Of a DNA stretch of 64,000 nt, positions 3,989 through 63,624 are shown piece by piece. The position numbers and the translations under genes were made by a program. This stretch comes from an uncultured Gammaproteobacteria bacterium (GTDB lineage Bacteria; Patescibacteriota; Microgenomatia; Daviesbacterales; UBA10151). The notes beneath the pieces are model-generated. The model was given only the letters and a program-made list of their open reading frames with translations. It searched no databases and had not been told where the DNA came from. The number at the start of each line of letters is the position of its first letter. Within the stretch, counting starts at the first letter, position 1. Where the stretch lies: positions 104,502 through 168,501 of the forward strand of contig CAYUPO010000001.1 in assembly GCA_964446685.1 (NCBI GenBank), written 5' to 3'.

Positions 3989-4028
3989 TGCGAGAATGAG
4001 TCTTCGAATGACGAAGCAATCTCACAAC
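3985..4028. repeat. palindromic-element family member (CATTGCGAG...GACGAAGCAAT)
   Basis: shares the CATTGCGAG / CTCGCAATG core with 4154-4167. Confidence 0.4.
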
Positions 4029-4097
4029 ATTAAGTCAACCAAGTAACAAAGTTAATTCTTAGAAACAGATTGCCGCGCGTTAATTCTTAGTAATTTC

Positions 4098-4167
4098 GCT
4101 CGCCACGATCAGTTTCATGATTGTGGCTCGCCACGATCAGTTTCATGATTGTGGCTCGCAATGACGG
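4098..4167. repeat. 28-bp tandem direct repeat x2.5 (GCTCGCCACGATCAGTTTCATGATTGTG)
   Basis: two perfect units 4098-4125 and 4126-4153, then a partial third. Confidence 0.8.
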
Positions 4168-4171
4168 TTTC

Positions 4172-5278
4172 CTAACTCAGTATTAACTCAAGTTTATTTT
4201 GACCCACTGCCAGCTTGATTTCTTTTGCTACTCTTCTACCAACTGTAATCGGCTCACCGTATAAATATCCGGCATATGGGGTAGCTGAAATTCCCGGACT
4301 TCCCGGCATTCGGGGTGAAACATCAAAGACGACTATTTCTTTTTTTGGTGGACCAGGTAATATCATCGCCTGTAACCCAAATGGACCAATCACCCCTGGA
4401 TCTACATGTTTGGCTGCAGCGGCAACAAATCTTTCACCCATGGCAAATATATCTCCCAGTAAAGATTCTAAAACAGTGACTGCTATATGACCGGCTTCTT
4501 CGTATTTGACAGAAATACTTTGAATAACTTTTTCAATATCTACTCCAGGAATTTTGCTGAATCCTTCCAAATTAGTTTGTCTTCTGGTATCAGTGCCTGA
4601 GAGTTCAAGACGTTTAGTAATTGGAGAATAAAAATAATTAAAATTAACCTGTACCCCAACCAGAAACTCTTCAATCACTACTTTTTTAAGTTGCTCCTCT
4701 GTAAAATCTCCTCTTTCAAGTCTTAGTTCAACTTCTGACTGAAATTCTTTATAAGATGAGACAGTGAAAAAAGATCTTTCAAACCCTCTTTCCTGTTCCA
4801 GTACTTTGACCAGACATAATCTATCTATTTTTTTAGGATCGGTAAATTGTTTAGGGTAGCGAATTTTAGCTGCATCCAGTAAGTCATATTGATTTGGTTT
4901 GACTCCCCGTTCTTCAGTTTTGAGTAAAAATTTATTTCCAAACATCGGAACTTTAAACTTCTTTTCAATCGATGGATAGTCATTGAGATAGACCTCAAAT
5001 GATCTGTTGGGAACAAAGATGACATTTTTTTCTAACAGTTTTTTTTGAATATCAGGATTTAAAATATCTTTAAATTTTTCCAGTTCTAAAACCTCATCTA
5101 CACAACCTAATTCACCATTAGTTTTATAATGTTTACTGTAGACATCACCTCGGCCTTTTTGAGTAATAACCAGTGTTTTAAATCCTTCATCTTTGGCCCC
5201 TCTGGCAACATCTAAGGCAGAATGAGAACCAATAGAAGCAACTGTGATGTTTTGGCTGGTGTAAGATTTAAGATTCAT
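4172..5278 (-). CDS. purP: 5-formaminoimidazole-4-carboxamide ribonucleotide synthetase, archaeal-type (PurP), paralog 1
   Basis: 368 aa; N-terminal IGSHSALDV..GAKDEGF motif and ATP-grasp body match archaeal PurP. Confidence 0.7.
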   Translation of the reverse strand: MNLKSYTSQNITVASIGSHSALDVARGAKDEGFKTLVITQKGRGDVYSKHYKTNGELGCVDEVLELEKFKDILNPDIQKKLLEKNVIFVPNRSFEVYLNDYPSIEKKFKVPMFGNKFLLKTEERGVKPNQYDLLDAAKIRYPKQFTDPKKIDRLCLVKVLEQERGFERSFFTVSSYKEFQSEVELRLERGDFTEEQLKKVVIEEFLVGVQVNFNYFYSPITKRLELSGTDTRRQTNLEGFSKIPGVDIEKVIQSISVKYEEAGHIAVTVLESLLGDIFAMGERFVAAAAKHVDPGVIGPFGLQAMILPGPPKKEIVVFDVSPRMPGSPGISATPYAGYLYGEPITVGRRVAKEIKLAVGQNKLELILS

Positions 5279-5291
5279 GATTTACTAATTA

Positions 5292-5615
5292 TCAACTGCC
5301 CCCTACATCTGTCATTCTGGCTTGTCCAGAATCAAACAAAGTAGTATACAAATCGACCATTTCTGGATTCAAACTTTCTATCATTTTAAGTTTATTATCC
5401 CTATTCATATTTTTTATTTGTTTTTCCCGGATAATTCCTTCTATCTGTCCTTCAACAACTTCATAGTACAAAAGCTTATGCAAATGATACTTCCTAGTAA
5501 ATCCATCTACCAATTCTTCTTTATGCTCAGTAACTCTTTTTATTAAGTCACTTGTGACACCTGTATACAATGTAGGTCTATTATTACCCATAATGTAAAC
5601 ATACATCTGTTTCAT
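5292..5615 (-). CDS. GIY-YIG nuclease family protein (COG2827/YhbQ-like URI domain)
   Basis: 107 aa; YVYIMGNNRPTLYTGVTSDLIKRVTEH = GIY-YIG core; bracketed by inverted repeats 5311-5333 / 5624-5690. Confidence 0.7.
   Translation of the reverse strand: MKQMYVYIMGNNRPTLYTGVTSDLIKRVTEHKEELVDGFTRKYHLHKLLYYEVVEGQIEGIIREKQIKNMNRDNKLKMIESLNPEMVDLYTTLFDSGQARMTDVGGS
5311..5333. repeat. left inverted repeat flanking GIY-YIG gene 1 (GTCATTCTGGCTTGTCCAGAATC)
   Basis: reverse-complement halves found at 5624-5635 and 5680-5690. Confidence 0.65.
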
Positions 5616-5623
5616 CTTGTTTA

Positions 5624-5690
5624 GATTCTGGACAGATATTTTTAAGGCTAAGTTAATTCCAATCTAAACAATTAAGGTAGCCAGAATGAC
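5624..5690. repeat. right inverted repeat flanking GIY-YIG gene 1 (GATTCTGGACAG ... GCCAGAATGAC)
   Basis: RC of the left-repeat halves, split by a ~44-bp spacer. Confidence 0.6.
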
Positions 5691-5696
5691 AAATGG

Positions 5697-6725
5697 TTAA
5701 TTTAATATAAGTTCAAGTTTTTTCTGTTCGATAGCCCTCTTGATCTCTCTGGCTATTCTTCTTCCGGTACTCATTGGTTCATCATAATTTAAATCAGAAT
5801 AAGAGCTGCCATTGGTAAACAAATTAGTTCCGGCGACTATCCGGCAGGAAATTTCCATCGCCACAAATTTTTGATCTGGTGTTATAACAGTTTCCAAGCA
5901 AAATGGACCAAACAAGCCTTTTTTATCGATTAATTCTTTTGATGAACGAATAACTGACTCTCCCATAGCATAAGCTTCAGGTAAAAGGGATTCTCTTAGT
6001 ACTAGTGGACTATTGCCTACAACAACATAGCTTGGATCAATGTCTAATCCTTCCTGTCCGTGAAGCGGGATTCTGCCTAATCCATCAACATTGGTTTCAT
6101 ATCGTCTGTCCATCGACATTATTTCTATTTCTCCTGTCAGTGGAGAATGGAAGTAATGAATATAAAGTGTTACACCAATTACATATTCCTGAATAATAAA
6201 TTCATCAGTTTTGAGACTTTTTATTTTTTTAAGGAAATCTTCTTTATCACGAGCATAAAAATAACCTTTTCCTCCAGCTGCACCATATGTTTTTACAATT
6301 ACCGGATAGGTCACATCATCTAAATCATCAAATTGTTTTGGCATTGGTATTCTGGCATGAAGCAACCACTCCCTTTGCATTCCTCTATCCCCTTCCCAGT
6401 CCAGGACAGCTTTATTACCAAAATAAGGAATAGACAATTTTTTGTTGTTTTCAGTACCAAGATAAGCCACAAATGAACCATGAGGAACTAAAATGATATT
6501 TTGTTTAAGAAGCTGCTTTTCAACTTTTTTAAACTGACTAAAATGAGGAACAGTTAAAATAGTATCGATAAATTTAAACCGCTTGTAGAAAGACTCCCTT
6601 TCATGGGTCGTAACAATCAGTGTTTTAAAACCTTCTTGTTTAGCTCCATGCAGAATCTGAAGAGAAGAATGCGAACCCAAAGTTGCAATAGTGTAATCAC
6701 TAAATTTCATTGTATTGTGAAACAA
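5697..6725 (-). CDS. purP: archaeal-type FAICAR synthetase (PurP), paralog 2
   Basis: 342 aa; TLGSHSSLQILHGAKQEGF motif; ~40% identical to paralog 1 by eye, so an old duplication. Confidence 0.7.
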   Translation of the reverse strand: MFHNTMKFSDYTIATLGSHSSLQILHGAKQEGFKTLIVTTHERESFYKRFKFIDTILTVPHFSQFKKVEKQLLKQNIILVPHGSFVAYLGTENNKKLSIPYFGNKAVLDWEGDRGMQREWLLHARIPMPKQFDDLDDVTYPVIVKTYGAAGGKGYFYARDKEDFLKKIKSLKTDEFIIQEYVIGVTLYIHYFHSPLTGEIEIMSMDRRYETNVDGLGRIPLHGQEGLDIDPSYVVVGNSPLVLRESLLPEAYAMGESVIRSSKELIDKKGLFGPFCLETVITPDQKFVAMEISCRIVAGTNLFTNGSSYSDLNYDEPMSTGRRIAREIKRAIEQKKLELILN

Positions 6726-7424: not shown

Positions 7425-8996
7425 TTATTCCCATTCCATAGTTGCGGGAGGCTTTGTTGTTATATCATAAACTACTCTATTAACTTCTGTTACTTCGGTT
7501 ACTATTCTGTTTGAAATTTTCATTAATAATTCAAATGGTAAATTAGCTACATCTGCACTCATGGCATCTTTAGCATCCAGAGCTCTTAAGGCAATTGTTT
7601 CTCCATAAACTCTTTGATCACCTCTGACACCGGTTGTTTTGATGTTTGTAAAAATAGCAAAAGCCTGCCAGAGTTTGTCCTGCAATTTGGCTTTTAAAAT
7701 CTCTTCCTGGACTATAAAATCCGCTTGCCTTAAAATCTCTAAATTATAGTCAGTGACAGCTCCAATGATTCTAACTGCAAGGCCTGGACCTGGGAATGGC
7801 TGTCTTTTAACCACTGAATCCGGCATTCCCAGCAATTTACCAACCTGTCTGACTTGATCTTTATAAAAAAGCCGCAAAGGCTCAATTAGGGCCAGTTTCA
7901 TGACTTCTGGTAGCCCACCAACATTGTGATGGGACTTTATATTCTGAGAATGTTTGGTTCCCTGACTTTCTATCACATCTGGATAAATTGTGCCCTGGAC
8001 TAGAAATGTGGCACCAATCTTTTTGGCTTCTCTGTCAAAGATATCTATGAATGTTTTACCAATAATTTTTCTTTTGGTTTCCGGATCAACTACTCCTTTT
8101 AAGGCAGATAGAAATTCTTTTTTGGCATTAATGATCTGCACTTTCATGTGATAATGGTCTTTAAAAACTTTTTTCAAAACATCAGTTTCTCCTTTTCGCA
8201 TTAGTCCTGAATCAATATAAAAAGAAGTAAGCTTGGTTCCGATTGCCCGATGAACTAAGAGAGCAGCAACTGATGAATCGACTCCGCCGGATAAAGCGCA
8301 GATCGCTTTTTCATTACCAACCGACTCTTTAATATCTTCAATCATTTCAGCTACATATTTTTTATTTAAGGGAGATAACTCTGGTTTTAAACCACAGATT
8401 TTTAGAAAGTTGGATAAAATTGTTTCACCAAATTGGGTATGCACTAACTCTGGATGAAACTGAATACCAAAAAGTTTTCTTTTTTCATCTGACATAGCAG
8501 CCACAGGAATAGTTTTGGTAGTGGCATTTGTGACAAATCCTTTTGGTGGTTTCATTACTGAATCTCCATGCGACATCCAGACATTAAATTCCTCAGATGT
8601 TCCTTCAAATAAAGAATTTGCTTTTGATACCTTTCCTACATTTGATACCTTTAAATTAGCTGGCCCATACTCCCGTATTTTCCCTGGTTTTACATCTCCT
8701 TTTAAAAGGTGTGCCATCAGTTGCTGCCCATAACAAATCCCTAAAATTGGAATACCTAATTTAAATACCTCTTCAGAAATAGTTGGACTATCTTTTTCAT
8801 AAACAGAAGACGGCCCTCCTGAAAAAATAATCCCCATAACGTCATTCCCGCGACCTGTACTGAGCGAAGTCGAAGTAAAGCGGGAATCTAAATCAATATT
8901 CTCTGGCAAAATAATTTTTGTCTTCACCCCAAATTCATTTATTCTCCGGGAAATCAGATGTGTTGATTGTGAACCAAAATCGATAATTATTATCAT
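7425..8996 (-). CDS. guaA: GMP synthase, glutamine-hydrolysing (GuaA), carrying a 48-bp in-frame palindromic-element insertion
   Basis: 523 aa; GATase CYGQQ, FHPE, PP-loop SGGVDSSV; extra DSRFTSTSLSTGRGND encoded by repeat at 8841-8888. Confidence 0.9.
   Translation of the reverse strand: MIIIIDFGSQSTHLISRRINEFGVKTKIILPENIDLDSRFTSTSLSTGRGNDVMGIIFSGGPSSVYEKDSPTISEEVFKLGIPILGICYGQQLMAHLLKGDVKPGKIREYGPANLKVSNVGKVSKANSLFEGTSEEFNVWMSHGDSVMKPPKGFVTNATTKTIPVAAMSDEKRKLFGIQFHPELVHTQFGETILSNFLKICGLKPELSPLNKKYVAEMIEDIKESVGNEKAICALSGGVDSSVAALLVHRAIGTKLTSFYIDSGLMRKGETDVLKKVFKDHYHMKVQIINAKKEFLSALKGVVDPETKRKIIGKTFIDIFDREAKKIGATFLVQGTIYPDVIESQGTKHSQNIKSHHNVGGLPEVMKLALIEPLRLFYKDQVRQVGKLLGMPDSVVKRQPFPGPGLAVRIIGAVTDYNLEILRQADFIVQEEILKAKLQDKLWQAFAIFTNIKTTGVRGDQRVYGETIALRALDAKDAMSADVANLPFELLMKISNRIVTEVTEVNRVVYDITTKPPATMEWE
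8841..8888. mobile_element. 48-bp palindromic element inserted in-frame in guaA
   Basis: GTCATTCCCGCG...CTGAGCGAAGTCGAAG...GCGGGAATC; exactly 16 codons. Confidence 0.7.
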
Positions 8997-27401: not shown

Positions 27402-28718
27402 TCAAGTAATTTTATTTTTTAGATATTTTTTATCTTTTAATTTATCAGGCAGTAAACTTTGATCTGTATACATTTCATAGCCTTTGCCGTATCCCACCTC
27501 TTTCATCAGCTTGGTTGGTGCATTTCTTAAGCTCATTGGTATAGGTAAATTGCCGTATTGTTTGACATCGGCCTGAGCTGCTCTGAATGCATCATAGGAT
27601 GTGCGGTCTTTTTTGGCAGATGCCAGATACACCACTCCATGAGCTAAATTAATACCACACTCTGGGTAGCCAATTGTTTCACAGGCTCTGAACACTTCAT
27701 TTGCCACAACCAAAGCTGTGGGTTGCGCCATACCAATATCTTCAGAAGCAAAGATCACCATTCTTCTGGCAATAAATAAAGGATCCTCCCCTGCTTCAAT
27801 CATTCTGGCTAAATAATAAAGAGCAGCATCAGGATTTGATGCCCGCATTGATTTGATAAAAGCTGAAATTGTATTGTAATGCTCTTCCCCGCCTTTGTCA
27901 TAAGCTAAAGCTTTGTGCTGGAGAGCCTCTTCAATAAGTTCTTTGGTGATTCTACCCTTGTCATGCTGAACCGATTCGGTCTGAGCCTCACGGTCGAAGA
28001 CTTGTTTCAGCATCTTCCCCTTGAATAAGTTCTCATTTTGATCAGCTTGAGAATTGGCAGATCCTGAAACAAGTTCAGGATGACAAAAATACGAAGCTAT
28101 TTCCAAAGTGTTCAAAATCATTCTGGCATCTCCGTTTGAATGTTCAATTAAAAATTCCTGAGCATCTTTAGCAATTTTTAGTTTTAAGTTTCCTAATCCT
28201 TTTTCTTTGTCTTTTAAAGCCCGGTTTATTAACTCTGAAATATCTTCCGGTTTTAGAGACTCTAATACAAACACTCTGGAACGGGATAACAACGGGGAAA
28301 TAATCTCAAAGCTGGGATTCTCAGTCGTCGCCCCAATCAGAGTGATTGTGCCATTTTCAACATATGATAAAAATGCATCCTGCTGGGCTTTATTAAAACG
28401 ATGAATTTCATCAATAAAAACAATAGTCTGCTTTTTTGAAAATAAAGTCCTTTGCCCTTTTAACTCTTCAAAGATTTTTTTCAGATCAGCTATTCCGGTA
28501 GTAACCGCTGAAAATTCCATAAAATCTGAATCTGTTTCATTGGCAATAATCCGGGCTAAGGTGGTTTTACCGACTCCCGGAGGACCCCAGAACATCATAG
28601 AAAAAATCCGGTTTTCTTTAATTGCGTTATAAAGCAGTTTACCAGGAGCTAAAATATGCTTTTGACCAACATAATCAGCGAGGGACTGCGGACGCATTCG
28701 GTCAGATAATGGAATCAT
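27402..28718 (-). CDS. rarA: replication-associated recombination protein A (RarA/MgsA AAA+ ATPase), carrying an in-frame palindromic-element insertion
   Basis: 438 aa; Walker [10 protein letters not shown], Walker B FIDEIH; repeat copy at 27965-28011 encodes [15 protein letters not shown]. Confidence 0.85.
27965..28011. mobile_element. palindromic element inserted in-frame in rarA
   Basis: GCTGAACCGATTCGGTCTGAGCCTCACGGTCGAAGACTTGTTTCAGC; paralog of 51-98. Confidence 0.65.
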
Positions 28719-32305: not shown

Positions 32306-32911
32306 TTAATATTCTTTCCTCCCCTCAAAAGATCTGGTCAGGGTTGATTCATCAGCATATTCAAGGTCGCCTCCAACTGGCAATCCTCTGGCAATTCGGG
32401 TGACTTTAATTCCAAGAGGTCTGATCAGACGATCAATATACATGGCGGTTGCCTCCCCTTCCATTGTGGGGTTGGTAGCCAGAATGACCTCTGTGACTGA
32501 TCCATCTTTCAACCTGGGCAATAACTCTCTGACATGAAGTTCATCCGGTCCAATGTTTTGCAAAGGTGAAATAGCTCCATGTAAGACATGATACAGCCCT
32601 TTGAAATTTGTCCGGTCAATTGCCAATACATCTAAAGGATCTTCCACCACACAAATAATACTTTTATCACGAGTCGGATCACTATCAATTTCACAGGGAT
32701 CTTTTTCTGAGATATTAAAACAAACAGAACAAAGCACCGTACTTTCTTTGAGAGCGAGAGCCGACTTTGCCAGCATCTCAGCTTCTTCTTTTGGTGCATG
32801 AAGTAAATAATAAGTCAGCCGCTGAGCCGACTTTGGTCCAATACCAGGCAGTCTTTCAAACGCTTCAATTAATTCTCTAACAACTTTGGGAATTGTAGCC
32901 ATGGCAAACAC
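32306..32911 (-). CDS. recR: recombination protein RecR
   Basis: 201 aa; HhH LPGIGPKSAQR, C4 zinc finger, Toprim. Confidence 0.9.
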   Translation of the reverse strand: MFAMATIPKVVRELIEAFERLPGIGPKSAQRLTYYLLHAPKEEAEMLAKSALALKESTVLCSVCFNISEKDPCEIDSDPTRDKSIICVVEDPLDVLAIDRTNFKGLYHVLHGAISPLQNIGPDELHVRELLPRLKDGSVTEVILATNPTMEGEATAMYIDRLIRPLGIKVTRIARGLPVGGDLEYADESTLTRSFEGRKEY

Positions 32912-35393: not shown

Positions 35394-35692
35394 CGTCATT
35401 CCAGCGAAAGTCATCGATTCTGAGGTCTAACGCCTCCACCTCCAGACTCGAAGAGCAGGCATCTGTAATAACAGGTTAGCAATTCATTAAATTTTCACCT
35501 AGTTATCAGAGAACAGATTCCCCTTTACAGGGGAATGACGTTTACTAGTTAATTATTAACTGACTTCCGGCCACAGCGGTAGTGGTTTCCGTCATTCCTG
35601 CGAAAGCAGGAATCTGTTATAACTGGAACTAACTAGGAAACTATTGAAACCCTGTATGAAAACAGCAGATTCCCCTTTTCAGGGGAATGACG
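35394..35692. repeat. array of at least four GTCATTCC-type palindromic elements in the folD-yjjX spacer
   Basis: 35516-35540, 35590-35616, 35666-35692 are clear hairpins (ATTCCCCT/AGGGGAAT, ATTCCTGC/GCAGGAAT); 35394-35430 is degenerate. Confidence 0.75.
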
Positions 35693-36243: not shown

Positions 36244-36415
36244 AGTTAAATTTCTAAGTACTAATTTCTAATTACTAAATAATGTCTAATGAATAAATTC
36301 TTGCTTCGCAATGAATAAATTCTTGCTTCGCAATGAATAAATGTCTAAAGAGTTTAGTCATTAGTATTTGGGATTTGTTTAGGAATTAGAAATTAGAGTA
36401 ATTAGAAATTTTTCT
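36244..36415. repeat. AT-rich spacer with inverted TTTCTAATT / AATTAGAAA heptamer arms plus a 23-bp direct repeat (AATGAATAAATTCTTGCTTCGCA x2)
   Basis: read directly. Confidence 0.6.
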
Positions 36416-40248: not shown

Positions 40249-40445
40249 ATGAGGATTCTTAGATTACCATAGTTCCACAGTAAAGGGTCAAGATAGAAGA
40301 ATAACTATGGAACAGATAGAAAGAGGTAAGTCCTGAGGAAATTTCTAATTTCTAATTACTAATTGACCTAAATAAATTCCAGTTTCTAAGAAGCTAAACT
40401 ACTTAAACATTATTTAGAAATTAGGTTAATTAGAAATTAGAAATT
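40249..40445. repeat. AT-rich spacer with inverted TTTCTAATTTCTAATTACTAATT / TTAGAAATTAGG..TTAGAAATTAGAAATT arms (dnaX-ybeY)
   Basis: read directly. Confidence 0.6.
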
Positions 40446-40859
40446 TTAATGTTGGTGTATTCCCAGGAGGTGGCTGGTGCCGTGTTCGACTAGCATTCGG
40501 ATCTCTTCTTCAACAGCAACTCCCTCAGCAACAGCATCTTTTTTGGCTTCCGGATAGGAAATGACAATATCACCCAGTCTGGTGATTTTATCCGGTGAGG
40601 GCACAAAACCCATTTTGCTAAGATGCATCACACCATTTTTTTGAGGTTGTTCATAGGGAAAAGAAAGAATATTTGTGGTGCTATCAATACCCCTATAAGT
40701 TTTGTTAATCTCGTGCATCTGATTGTCACCGACAATCGTAATACCTATTTCAATATTTCCATGGATCTGATGCCTTTTTAAGACCTCCATAGCAGCTGAC
40801 TGGACAGCGAATTTGTTAATTTCAAATTTTGTATCAGAATTGACAATAATATTAACCAT
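40446..40859 (-). CDS. ybeY: rRNA maturation endoribonuclease YbeY
   Basis: 137 aa; HGTSHLLGIHQH metal-binding H-box. Confidence 0.75.
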   Translation of the reverse strand: MVNIIVNSDTKFEINKFAVQSAAMEVLKRHQIHGNIEIGITIVGDNQMHEINKTYRGIDSTTNILSFPYEQPQKNGVMHLSKMGFVPSPDKITRLGDIVISYPEAKKDAVAEGVAVEEEIRMLVEHGTSHLLGIHQH

Positions 40860-41629: not shown

Positions 41630-41866
41630 AAACTGGGTTAGTAGATCGTTTTTTGTATATCGTGTATCGTTAATCGTATATCGGAAAACAGATTCCTGCT
41701 TTTTCCGATAAACCATACACGATTTACGATTCACTATTACGATTTACTAATAAAAACACCTCCTTTGGTAATTCTAACACGATTATCGCATTAGTTTGAT
41801 CTATTTTACCACAAAAAACCTAATTTGGGGAAACAAAAGCAAAGTCACCGTTTAGACAAATACTTG

Positions 41867-41882
41867 CTGAGCGAAGTCGAAG
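41867..41882. repeat. left IR of GIY-YIG gene 2 (CTGAGCGAAGTCGAAG)
   Basis: perfect RC at 42222-42237; the same 16-mer lies inside the guaA insert. Confidence 0.8.
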
Positions 41883-41928
41883 CATTTCAATATTGCTTTT
41901 TAAATAACTGATCATTATTATCCAGATC

Positions 41929-42198
41929 ATGAGTAGCTGGAAATGGTTTGTGTATATTTTAGAATGTCAGGATGGAAGTTATTACACTGGATTAAGTTAT
42001 AGATATGATCAGCGATATGAACAGCATTTATCTGGATTGGGAGGTAAATACACAGCTAACCATGGAGTTAAAAAATTAGTATATGTTGAGGAATATGATA
42101 ACTTCGAGGAAGCTAAGTTAAGAGAAAACCAGATCCATGGATGGACAAGAAAAAAGAAAGAAAACCTAATAATAGGCAAATGGACAAAATGGCAATAG
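41929..42198 (+). CDS. GIY-YIG nuclease family protein (COG2827/YhbQ-like), second copy
   Basis: 89 aa; WFVYILECQDGSYYTGLS...QH core; bracketed by perfect 16-bp inverted repeat CTGAGCGAAGTCGAAG (41867-41882 / 42222-42237). Confidence 0.7.
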   Translation: MSSWKWFVYILECQDGSYYTGLSYRYDQRYEQHLSGLGGKYTANHGVKKLVYVEEYDNFEEAKLRENQIHGWTRKKKENLIIGKWTKWQ

Positions 42199-42221
42199 GG
42201 TTTTAGCCCAGTAATGAATTC

Positions 42222-42237
42222 CTTCGACTTCGCTCAG
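42222..42237. repeat. right IR of GIY-YIG gene 2 (CTTCGACTTCGCTCAG)
   Basis: perfect RC of 41867-41882. Confidence 0.8.
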
Positions 42238-46745: not shown

Positions 46746-46889
46746 TTTGAAGCTTAAGAATAATGCAATTGAACCGAAGAATCAATAGAAGGTATCAGAT
46801 TAGAATATCAAATATCCAATGCCAAATATCAAATATCCAAACTTAGTATTGGTATTTATTTGATATTGGATATTAGATATTGGATATTT
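46746..46889. repeat. AT-rich spacer with inverted CAAATATCAAATATCCAA / TTGGATATTAGATATTGG arms (rseP-frr)
   Basis: read directly. Confidence 0.6.
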
Positions 46890-47452: not shown

Positions 47453-47479
47453 CAGATTCCTGCTTTCGCAGGAATGACG
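47453..47479. repeat. palindromic element CAGATTCCTGCTTTCGCAGGAATGACG between tsf and frr
   Basis: same hairpin type as 35590-35616 and 51427-51450. Confidence 0.7.
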
Positions 47480-51373: not shown

Positions 51374-51450
51374 CGTCATTCCCCTGAAAAGGGGAATCTG
51401 TAAATACCTAAGAGTAGGCACCGCATATTCCTGCTTTCGCAGGAATGACG
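51374..51450. repeat. two palindromic elements between the thyA-family gene and dcd-like gene
   Basis: CGTCATTCCCCTGAAAAGGGGAATCTG and ATTCCTGCTTTCGCAGGAATGACG. Confidence 0.75.
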
Positions 51451-54947: not shown

Positions 54948-55053
54948 AACAATTAAATATCCAAAGTCAAATGTCTAATGCCAAATGTAGAATGTCAAAT
55001 TTCCAATGATGTATTGGACATTTGTCATTTGACATTGGTAGTATTTGACATTT
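54948..55053. repeat. AT-rich spacer with inverted CAAATGTC.. / GACATTTG.. heptamer arms (tmk-mazG)
   Basis: read directly. Confidence 0.6.
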
Positions 55054-55403: not shown

Positions 55404-55479
55404 GTCATCCCGAACTCGTTTCGGGATCTACCCTTTTGTATAACCTCGGCAGATGCTGAAACAAGTTCAGCATGACAAG
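55404..55479. repeat. two palindromic elements between mazG-like gene and pyrG (GTCATCCCGAACTCGTTTCGGGATC; GATGCTGAAACAAGTTCAGCATGAC)
   Basis: second one shares CTGAAACAAG with the 51-98 / 27965-28011 variant. Confidence 0.65.
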
Positions 55480-57098: not shown

Positions 57099-57190
57099 AA
57101 TAATTACAAATATCTAATATCTAATAAAAATCAAAATACAATCGTTCCAATTTAGCATTGGATATTTGATATTTGATATTTGATATTTTT
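57099..57190. repeat. AT-rich spacer with AAATATCTAATATCTAAT and TTGGATATTTGATATTTGATATTTGATATTT arms upstream of pyrG
   Basis: read directly. Confidence 0.6.
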
Positions 57191-63489: not shown

Positions 63490-63530
63490 TTAATTAGTTA
63501 ATTAGTTAATTAGTTAATTAGTTAATTAGT
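63490..63530. repeat. tandem octamer TTAATTAG x5 upstream of the Clp ATPase gene
   Basis: read directly. Confidence 0.8.
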
Positions 63531-63624
63531 GAACAGGTTATAAGCCAAGCATCTGTGCTAAAACTTTTTTGGTTGATTTAACTTTTAATCTGATTAACTA
63601 TTCTCTAGTTAACTGATTAACTCG

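Follow-up and report, generated by a model that had tools for sequence, protein, structure and literature searches.

Small GIY-YIG nucleases accompanied by hairpin repeats were described as the Ssn family by Chenal et al. (2025, Nat Commun; PMC11893778), comprising proteins of ~94 aa and the repeats named NTS or SRM (CGTCATTCC...GGAATC). In the present work, a comparable arrangement was analyzed in a stretch of 64,000 nucleotides (positions 104,502 to 168,501 of contig CAYUPO010000001.1; hereafter, the window), where a gene encoding a small GIY-YIG protein, referred to as the ssn-like gene, lies between two purP paralogs (purP_A and purP_B) and forms a compact cassette with two inverted hairpins. 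The open reading frame (ORF), its purP neighbors and the repeats were all found where the original prediction for this DNA had placed them. That prediction had also considered the pairing of a GIY-YIG nuclease with such repeats not to be an established class; the pairing, including its analogy with REP elements and their RAYT transposases, is already published as Ssn/SRM (PMC11893778), and the window holds a new example with a variant stem rather than a new class. The evidence presented below makes it likely that the gene belongs to the Ssn family, as a member from Patescibacteria, and forms with its cognate hairpins a single 380-bp SRM-ssn-SRM unit.

The properties of the described system are taken from the same study (PMC11893778). 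The Neisseria meningitidis protein SsnA has 94 aa and a GIY-YIG domain only (CDD cd10448); it binds the NTS hairpin (CGTCATTCCCGCGMAVGCGGGAATCYRG) solely as single-stranded DNA and in one orientation, and cleaves a few nucleotides upstream of it, whereas the substitutions Y6A, Y17A and E64A abolish cleavage and retain binding. The three bases 5' of the palindrome are the most important for cutting and the C just 3' of it for binding; altering the stem while keeping its structure abolishes activity, while the identity of the loop is dispensable and loop extensions are tolerated in vitro. The repeats that accompany Ssn genes are oriented hairpins of 20-50 nt. Among Ssn homolog loci, 71% had at least one SRM and 42% had SRMs on both sides. 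Both the insertion sequence (IS)-like architecture NTS-ssnA-NTS and the REP/RAYT analogy are explicit in the discussion of that study, which lists Rickettsia among the SRM-rich genera and does not mention the phylum Patescibacteria. Knockout of ssnA in N. meningitidis raised transformation by NTS-bearing DNA ~5-fold. SsnA-associated repeats have since served as a benchmark class of known repeats in a 2026 preprint.

Features of the nuclease and its flanking hairpins

Membership in the Ssn family was defined by homology to Neisseria SsnA at E < 1e-10 (PMC11893778). The protein used here for comparison was a gonococcal one, and not N. meningitidis NMV_0044 itself: tblastn against a 7.3-Gb plasmid collection gave a match to the N. 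gonorrhoeae chromosome NZ_CP119140.1 (E = 9e-16), at a locus where canonical NTS hairpins lie around an ORF of 94 aa, which we take to be the gonococcal SsnA ortholog. Two N. gonorrhoeae chromosomes were found to be filed as plasmids in this collection. BLASTP of the ssn-like protein against the gonococcal ORF resulted in an end-to-end alignment with 44% identity over 89 aa (E = 3e-25), in which Y7, Y17 and E64 aligned with the mutagenized residues Y6, Y17 and E64 of SsnA; these columns were invariant or nearly so across 32 homologs. The only Pfam match was to PF01541 (GIY-YIG), at residues 4-76 (E = 5.4e-11). The conserved core spans residues 1-93, and the final ~13 residues (DSGQARMTDVGGS) come from translation into the 3' hairpin. 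The NCBIfam, PADLOC and PHROGs libraries gave no family match for either of the two GIY-YIG proteins of the window, and a profile of homologs compared with solved structures gave only weak UPF0213 matches (1zg2, E = 4.4e-6), with no Ssn structure found. The earlier description of the protein as YhbQ-type was not supported, as it groups with SsnA; it is the second GIY-YIG copy of the window, at 41929, that is nearer to UPF0213/YhbQ, the cd10456 group of BH0048/EF2693-type proteins.

On the coding strand, the order is purP_A stop codon, 6 nt, hairpin (5690 to 5624), 8 nt, ATG, gene, and GATTCTGGACAAGCCAGAATGAC (5333 to 5311), followed by 16 nt up to the stop codon of the ssn-like gene and 13 nt up to the ATG of purP_B. 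The left repeat, which had been predicted to flank the ORF, is indeed present at 5311-5333, but it lies inside the 3' end of the ORF, where it encodes ...DSGQARMT. The right element, whose plus-strand halves are GATTCTGGACAG (5624-5635) and GCCAGAATGAC (5680-5690), is a single minus-strand hairpin of the same family as the left one, with a 44-nt insert in its loop; upstream SRMs of close homologs likewise had long and variable loop inserts. Both flanking hairpins have the GTC 5' of the palindrome and the C 3' of it. Flanking similarity no better than chance, which would have refuted the original prediction, was excluded: GTCATTCTGGC occurs 3 times in the window vs. 0.01 expected (0 of 100 shuffles reached 3), and TGTCCAGAATC occurs twice vs. 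0.04 expected. The third copy of GTCATTCTGGC, located within recR (32478-32488; VTEVILATNP) and lacking a partner arm, is probably a coincidence. A generic count of 11-mer inverted repeats was too unspecific to be used. Folded as single-stranded DNA, the 3' hairpin gave -5.2 kcal/mol (z = -3.4), and its 23-mer was identical in 9 of 10 aligned homolog loci, despite many differences in the coding sequence. A promoter scan showed no excess of matches (3 vs. 2.7 in shuffles). One match ahead of purP_B, ATGACA-16-GATAAT, is partly formed by the 3' hairpin; such matches were no commoner than in shuffles.

If this assignment is correct, its main value is one of annotation: Patescibacteria genes labeled "GIY-YIG nuclease family protein" whose products have ...DSGQARMT or ...ILDKPE tails would encode Ssn-type nucleases of single-stranded DNA and be accompanied by their own recognition hairpins. 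In addition, ATTCTGG would represent a new stem specificity for the single-stranded-DNA cutting tools proposed in PMC11893778.

Occurrence of the layout among homologs

A protein search retrieved 706 relatives, the named ones belonging to Curtissbacteria, Daviesbacteria and similar groups. Flanks were surveyed in 80 metagenomic loci (here and below, L numbers designate individual loci), 70 of which extended 150 nt or more beyond the gene in each direction. A forward hairpin was present within 200 nt upstream in 63 of these 70 loci and a reverse hairpin at the 3' end in 62, while distal flanks contained 0.15 hairpins per kb. Both hairpins were found in 57/70 loci; the predicted architecture of a gene between inverted hairpins is real, and it is general in this subfamily. 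The same 7-nt arm occurred on both sides in 41 of the 57, and the arm types were ATTCTGG (34), ATTCCGG (18) and ATTCCCG (11), the latter being the canonical NTS/dRS3 stem, which was found in homologs of 52-60% identity (L050, L060, L062, L095). Among the hairpins of homolog flanks, GTC preceded 168 of 213 and C followed 171 of 213, with a finder that required neither. Protein identity was 0.66 within stem types vs. 0.58 between them, a difference that none of 1000 permutations reached and that fits a co-evolution of enzyme and site.

The C-termini of the homologs read either ...DSGQARMT... or ...ILDKPE-stop, which correspond to the DNA of GATTCTGGACAAGCCAGAATGAC translated in two frames; what is conserved is therefore the hairpin as DNA and not the peptide. 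Several N-terminal extensions (VILG..TPES, SFRLVRNP) were read-through of the upstream forward hairpin. In cassettes with TCCGG stems (L085, L086, L090, L094), the extended -10-like sequence TGATATAAT, or the nearly identical TGATAGAAT in L085, followed the upstream hairpin and preceded the start codon, suggesting that these cassettes may bring their own promoter.

Several observations count against the assignment to the Ssn family. Neither hairpin at the ssn-like gene matches the published SRM string, HGTCWYN(0-2)YYVSBRHN(0-5)WNVSBRGN(0-2)RNCYNB, which is a search heuristic derived from 29 genomes of 4 phyla and not a definition (PMC11893778); it matched 3 other hairpins of the window (vs. 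0.07 expected) and missed the copies with TCCTGCG stems. The minimum-energy fold of the split 5' hairpin was an alternative pairing and not the canonical stem (z = -1.7). The layout is not universal, as the NTS directly downstream of ssnA in N. gonorrhoeae is forward and not reverse, and the correlation between protein and stem type is confounded by shared descent.

Empty sites and proposed exchange of the cassette as a unit

The PurP_A protein was used to retrieve 12 related Patescibacteria species among species-representative genomes (64-93% identity). The empty sites that the original prediction had proposed to look for were found in all 12, where purP_A is directly followed by purP_B without a GIY-YIG gene; as an insertion between the two genes, the cassette is specific to its lineage. 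In the closest species (L005, PurP_A 93% identical), the purP_A stop and purP_B start codons overlap as TAATG. In L006 (92%), the 90-nt spacer (5012-5101) holds two gene-less convergent hairpins with other stem types, one of which supplies the purP_B start codon through its outer GCAATGAC. The public records of L005, L006, L009, L011 and L017 are titled "uncultured Gammaproteobacteria bacterium", evidently wrongly, as gene content and similarity identify them as Patescibacteria.

Comparisons between cassettes and their surroundings showed marked contrasts. The cassettes of L030 and L031 were 98% identical within syntenic flanks of ~71% identity, and the left-hand jump in identity was sharp and coincided with the outer end of the upstream hairpin. 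Those of L076 and L096 were 96% identical vs. 77% in the flanks; here it was the right-hand transition that was sharp, at the downstream hairpin's outer end. Cassettes from L085, L086 and L094 were 83-89% identical, while no tblastx similarity was detected in the 1.85 kb on either side. In an alignment of six loci, similarity started exactly at GTCATTCCGG and ended at GGAATGAC, or 10-40 nt farther on in one subgroup. In our reading, these sequence patterns indicate that the cassette may be an accessory module, which genomes gain, lose and exchange in one piece, from the outer end of one hairpin to that of the other. This evidence of mobility goes beyond the literature yet remains circumstantial, and three results weigh against it: the cassette was identical in four strain-level contigs (L001-L004), with no polymorphism or sign of ongoing movement; the boundary argument is partly confounded, as conserved hairpins would align between any homologous loci; and no target-site duplication was visible at the window locus, for which the closest empty site came from a species with 93% identical PurP_A, or in the six aligned cassettes. 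The empty sites and the contrasts between cassettes and flanks make the mobility of the NTS-ssnA-NTS unit, which was left open by PMC11893778, directly testable.

Alternatively, the ssn-like gene could be a fixed, domesticated host gene that restricts or trims incoming single-stranded DNA during natural transformation, as in N. meningitidis, with regulatory or self-protective hairpins and an immobile cassette. In line with such a gene, the locus is stable at the strain level, its catalytic residues are intact, and DNA-uptake machinery is commonly encoded in Patescibacteria; the ~5-fold effect of the ssnA knockout on transformation in Neisseria (PMC11893778) points the same way. On the other hand, the gene is missing at this site in every one of the 12 related species, and both the nearly identical cassettes in divergent flanks (L030/L031) and the related cassettes in unrelated flanks (L085, L086, L094) have to be accounted for. 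Vertical descent of a housekeeping gene is hard to reconcile with these absences and contrasts, and a purely resident role is thus regarded as possible rather than favored; a role that benefits the host and horizontal mobility are not mutually exclusive.

Returning to the exchange of the cassette as a unit, a mechanism can be proposed by extrapolation from the Neisseria and Wolbachia enzymes. The ~93-aa GIY-YIG core would bind the hairpin only as single-stranded DNA and in one orientation (GTC-ATTCTGG-loop-CCAGAAT-C), and would then nick a few nucleotides 5' of GTC. As both hairpins point outward, nicking is predicted to occur immediately beyond the cassette ends, adjacent to 5311 on its left (plus strand) and to 5690 on its right (minus strand). 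The 44-nt loop insert fits the tolerance of SsnA to loop extensions in vitro. Recombination might be stimulated when single-stranded DNA is nicked, either at replication forks or in strands taken up during transformation, and the comparative data point to a homing-like spread, through nick-stimulated or transformation-linked recombination, as the most likely route; transposase-catalyzed strand transfer seems less likely. It is proposed, only tentatively, that SRM-ssn-SRM cassettes are genuinely mobile elements of ~380 bp, whose termini would be the single-stranded substrates of their own GIY-YIG nuclease and which would spread in a homing-like manner, seeding solo hairpins and gene-less pairs (including those in frame in guaA and rarA), a principle that may extend beyond the cd10448 clade.

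Dispersed hairpins in the window

A relaxed hairpin finder, used with shuffle controls in place of the published SRM search string, detected 15 hairpins in the window vs. 2.9 ± 1.7 in 200 shuffles, ~13 of which belong to the family (Table 1). Most of the dispersed ones were arranged in gene-less pairs, a forward hairpin converging with a reverse one. The original prediction had held that the dispersed palindromes share the GTCATTC...GAATGAC termini of the cassette; the outer frame GTCATT...AATC is indeed common to all, but the stems differ (TCCCCTG, TCCTGCG, ATCCTGA and others), and hairpins with TCTGG stems were found in the window only at the ssn-like gene. The gene had also been put forward as the autonomous partner of these repeats, considered similar to miniature inverted-repeat transposable elements (MITEs). 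As none of them has the TCTGG stem and the stem matters for SsnA, it is unlikely to be their sole partner. The dispersed hairpins belong to the same repeat superfamily and, given their other stem types, probably serve or once served as substrates for other Ssn paralogs; such paralogs, encoded outside the window or since lost, are likelier partners, and only one Ssn-type gene copy was found within the window.

A stronger version of that proposal would be that the cassette is an autonomous IS-like transposon, with the GIY-YIG protein as its transposase and the dispersed palindromes as its non-autonomous MITE- or REP-like derivatives. Inverted hairpins at both ends, compact packing with the stop codon inside the 3' hairpin, variable presence among related species, closely related cassettes in unrelated contexts, gene-less convergent pairs with the same outward termini (in the window and in the purP spacer of L006) and small hairpins nested in hairpin loops could all be read in this way. 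Against it, GIY-YIG is a hydrolase fold for which strand-transfer chemistry is not known; to our knowledge, no GIY-YIG enzyme forms a covalent intermediate or performs the strand transfer needed for transposition. Moreover, the recognition hairpins lie on opposite strands, a misfit with single-strand "peel and paste" excision, no target-site duplication is visible at the window locus or in the six aligned cassettes, and the single Ssn-type copy of the window sits at a locus that is invariant in the four strain-level contigs. The restriction of TCTGG stems to the ssn-like gene, while dispersed copies have other stems, also argues against such derivatives, given that a changed stem with preserved structure abolishes SsnA activity (PMC11893778). 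We consider this explanation improbable. That the hairpins are ordinary terminators or chance palindromes of an AT-rich genome, unrelated to the nuclease, would agree with their being short, intergenic stem-loops beside gene ends, but is refuted by the lack of any terminator-like site in 5200-5800 or of a T-run, by 11-mer arms far above shuffle expectation, by the same oriented motif around 57/70 homologs, conserved through two reading frames, and by family members in frame inside guaA and rarA.

Regarding the in-frame copies, the segment of guaA (7425-8996, minus strand) containing the hairpin reads DLDSRFTSTSLSTGRGNDV and exceeds the corresponding segment of three related species by 9-11 residues; at the same codons, guaA of the sister species L006 has a different hairpin of the family, GATCCTGAAACAAGTTCAGGATGAC, read as ILKQVQDD. 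In rarA/mgsA (27402-28718, minus strand), which encodes a recombination ATPase, the pair of ~125 nt, read in frame as ~42 aa (...HPELVSGS...), splits the match to the AAA_assoc_2 domain.

Hairpin loops were recurrent insertion points for smaller hairpins, namely CCCCGACAAAGCGGGG, which is present or absent among L086, L093 and L094, CCGCCAGCTGGCGG, and a CTGAGC...GTCGAAG motif; in the window, such inserts are at 5636-5679 and 8854-8879. This pattern suggests a loop-targeted nesting of small hairpins. Nested loops like that of the element at 16-50 were also observed in the upstream SRMs of L034 and L058.

Table 1. Coordinates of the cassette, its genes and other hairpin-related features in the window.
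Feature	Position	Strand	Remarks
SRM-ssn-SRM cassette, 380 bp	5311..5690		GTCAT termini outward; purP_A-purP_B spacer
ssn-like GIY-YIG gene	5292..5615	minus	107-aa ORF; Pfam PF01541
3'-side SRM, GTCATTCTGGCTTGTCCAGAATC	5311..5333	plus (reverse relative to gene)	GTC-ATTCTGG-CTTGT-CCAGAAT-C; overlaps ORF end
5'-side SRM, GTCATTCTGGC, 44-nt loop insert, CTGTCCAGAATC	5624..5690	minus (forward on coding strand)	ends 8 nt before ATG
purP paralog A, upstream neighbor	5697..6725	minus	Pfam DUF1246+DUF1297; stop codon 6 nt from cassette end
purP paralog B, downstream neighbor	4172..5278	minus	Pfam DUF1246+DUF1297; ATG 32 nt past cassette end
SRM-like hairpin with nested CCGCCAGCTGGCGG loop	16..50	plus	first in a run of hairpin-like elements downstream of purE
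SRM-family hairpin, canonical NTS-type stem CGTCATTCCCGCG...GCGGGAATC	8841..8887	plus	in frame in guaA; loop holds 16-mer CTGAGCGAAGTCGAAG
Convergent SRM pair without gene	27960..28084	27960-28013 plus, 28061-28084 minus	in frame in rarA/mgsA
Four-SRM cluster, two convergent pairs	35395..35691	35395 plus (degenerate), 35517-39 minus, 35591-613 plus, 35669-91 minus	
Solo SRM, CGTCATTCCTGCGAAAGCAGGAATCTG	47456..47478	minus	hairpin finder
Convergent SRM pair without gene	51375..51449	51375-97 plus, 51427-49 minus	single-stranded DNA fold z = -4.9
Convergent SRM pair, intergenic	55404..55476	55404-27 plus, 55453-76 minus	hairpin finder
Second small GIY-YIG gene, 89 aa	41929-42198 (bracketed unit 41867-42237)	plus	UPF0213/YhbQ-like
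Tandem-unit inverted repeats	36261-36396, 40339-40446, 41655-41730, 46804-46889, 54956-55038, 57099-57190, 63495-63600		intergenic

Second GIY-YIG gene and other features of the window

The product of the second GIY-YIG gene is nearer to UPF0213/YhbQ than to SsnA (1zg2, E = 5.5e-15), and the gene lies between exact inverted copies of a 16-nt sequence, CTGAGCGAAGTCGAAG, and not between SRM hairpins. Its homologs of at least 59% identity (L099-L104) occupy four other gene contexts, and all have a forward CCTGAGC-N(3-25)-GTCGAAGG just upstream and a reverse copy directly after the stop codon, one of them with a co-varying TTCGAG...ATCGAGAAG form of the motif. No flanking motif was found in homologs of 46-48% identity, and the association is therefore confined to a subfamily. 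The CCTGAGC...GTCGAAGG motif was also nested in SRM loops. Judging from these sequences, this may be a second pairing of nuclease and motif, outside the published cd10448 clade.

The ssn-like gene is intergenic in a purine operon on the minus strand, with the order guaA, a small opposite-strand ORF, purP_A, ssn-like gene, purP_B, purB, a HAD-family gene, purK and purE. Composite, degenerate hairpin elements were observed at 1-160 (downstream of purE) and at 3989-4171 (between purB and purP_B), so that four or five junctions of the operon have elements of the hairpin family. Intergenic inverted repeats of a separate family, made of short tandem units (e.g., AATATCAAATATCCAAT / ATTGGATATTTGATATT, or AATTTCTAATTTCTAATTA), were also present in the window, and similar elements fill the purP spacer in the relatives L008 and L017.

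Comparison with known systems

The closest system is Ssn/SRM. Like it, the window locus has a single-domain GIY-YIG protein (44% identical to the gonococcal ortholog, with Y, Y and E conserved at the catalytic positions), oriented hairpins to either side of the gene that show the frame (C/T)GTCATT...AATC, numerous dispersed copies and tolerated loop inserts. It differs in its host, a Patescibacteria (Daviesbacteria-like) genome, and in its 7-bp stem, ATTCTGG vs. ATTCCCGCG, which is not matched by the published string. Its layout is strictly forward upstream and reverse downstream, with the 3' hairpin overlapping the stop codon, whereas the first downstream NTS in N. gonorrhoeae is forward.

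Neisserial intergenic mosaic elements (NIMEs) are units of 50-150 bp flanked by dRS3 inverted repeats. The gene-less convergent pairs of the window (51375-51449, 55404-55476) have the same build, and the hairpin at 8841-8887 has the stem ATTCCCGCG...CGCGGGAAT; in contrast, the phylum is another, most of the stems in the window differ, and some copies are in frame inside genes. In this last respect the window hairpins resemble the Rickettsia palindromic elements (RPEs), which insert in frame into coding genes and leave them intact, as do the hairpins in guaA and rarA. RPEs, at ~100-150 bp, are longer than the window hairpins, and the likeness noted here is that of in-frame insertion.

As in REP/BIME sequences with their RAYT proteins (IS200/IS605-like HUH Y1), a small nuclease gene lies between inverted copies of a dispersed hairpin, and recognition of the hairpin as single-stranded DNA would be a further likeness. 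The window protein is a GIY-YIG hydrolase and not an HUH enzyme with a covalent tyrosine intermediate, and the recognition strands are opposite at its two ends; we know of no transposition activity for the GIY-YIG side of this comparison. Lastly, the catalytic fold is shared with GIY-YIG homing endonucleases of the I-TevI type, whose selfish, nuclease-stimulated spread resembles the contrast between 98% identical cassettes and ~71% identical flanks. Those enzymes have a separate DNA-binding domain, cut double strands and usually reside in introns or phage genomes, whereas the window protein is single-domain, has no PHROG match and is encoded in an intergenic region of a purine operon, and its relatives cut single-stranded DNA only.

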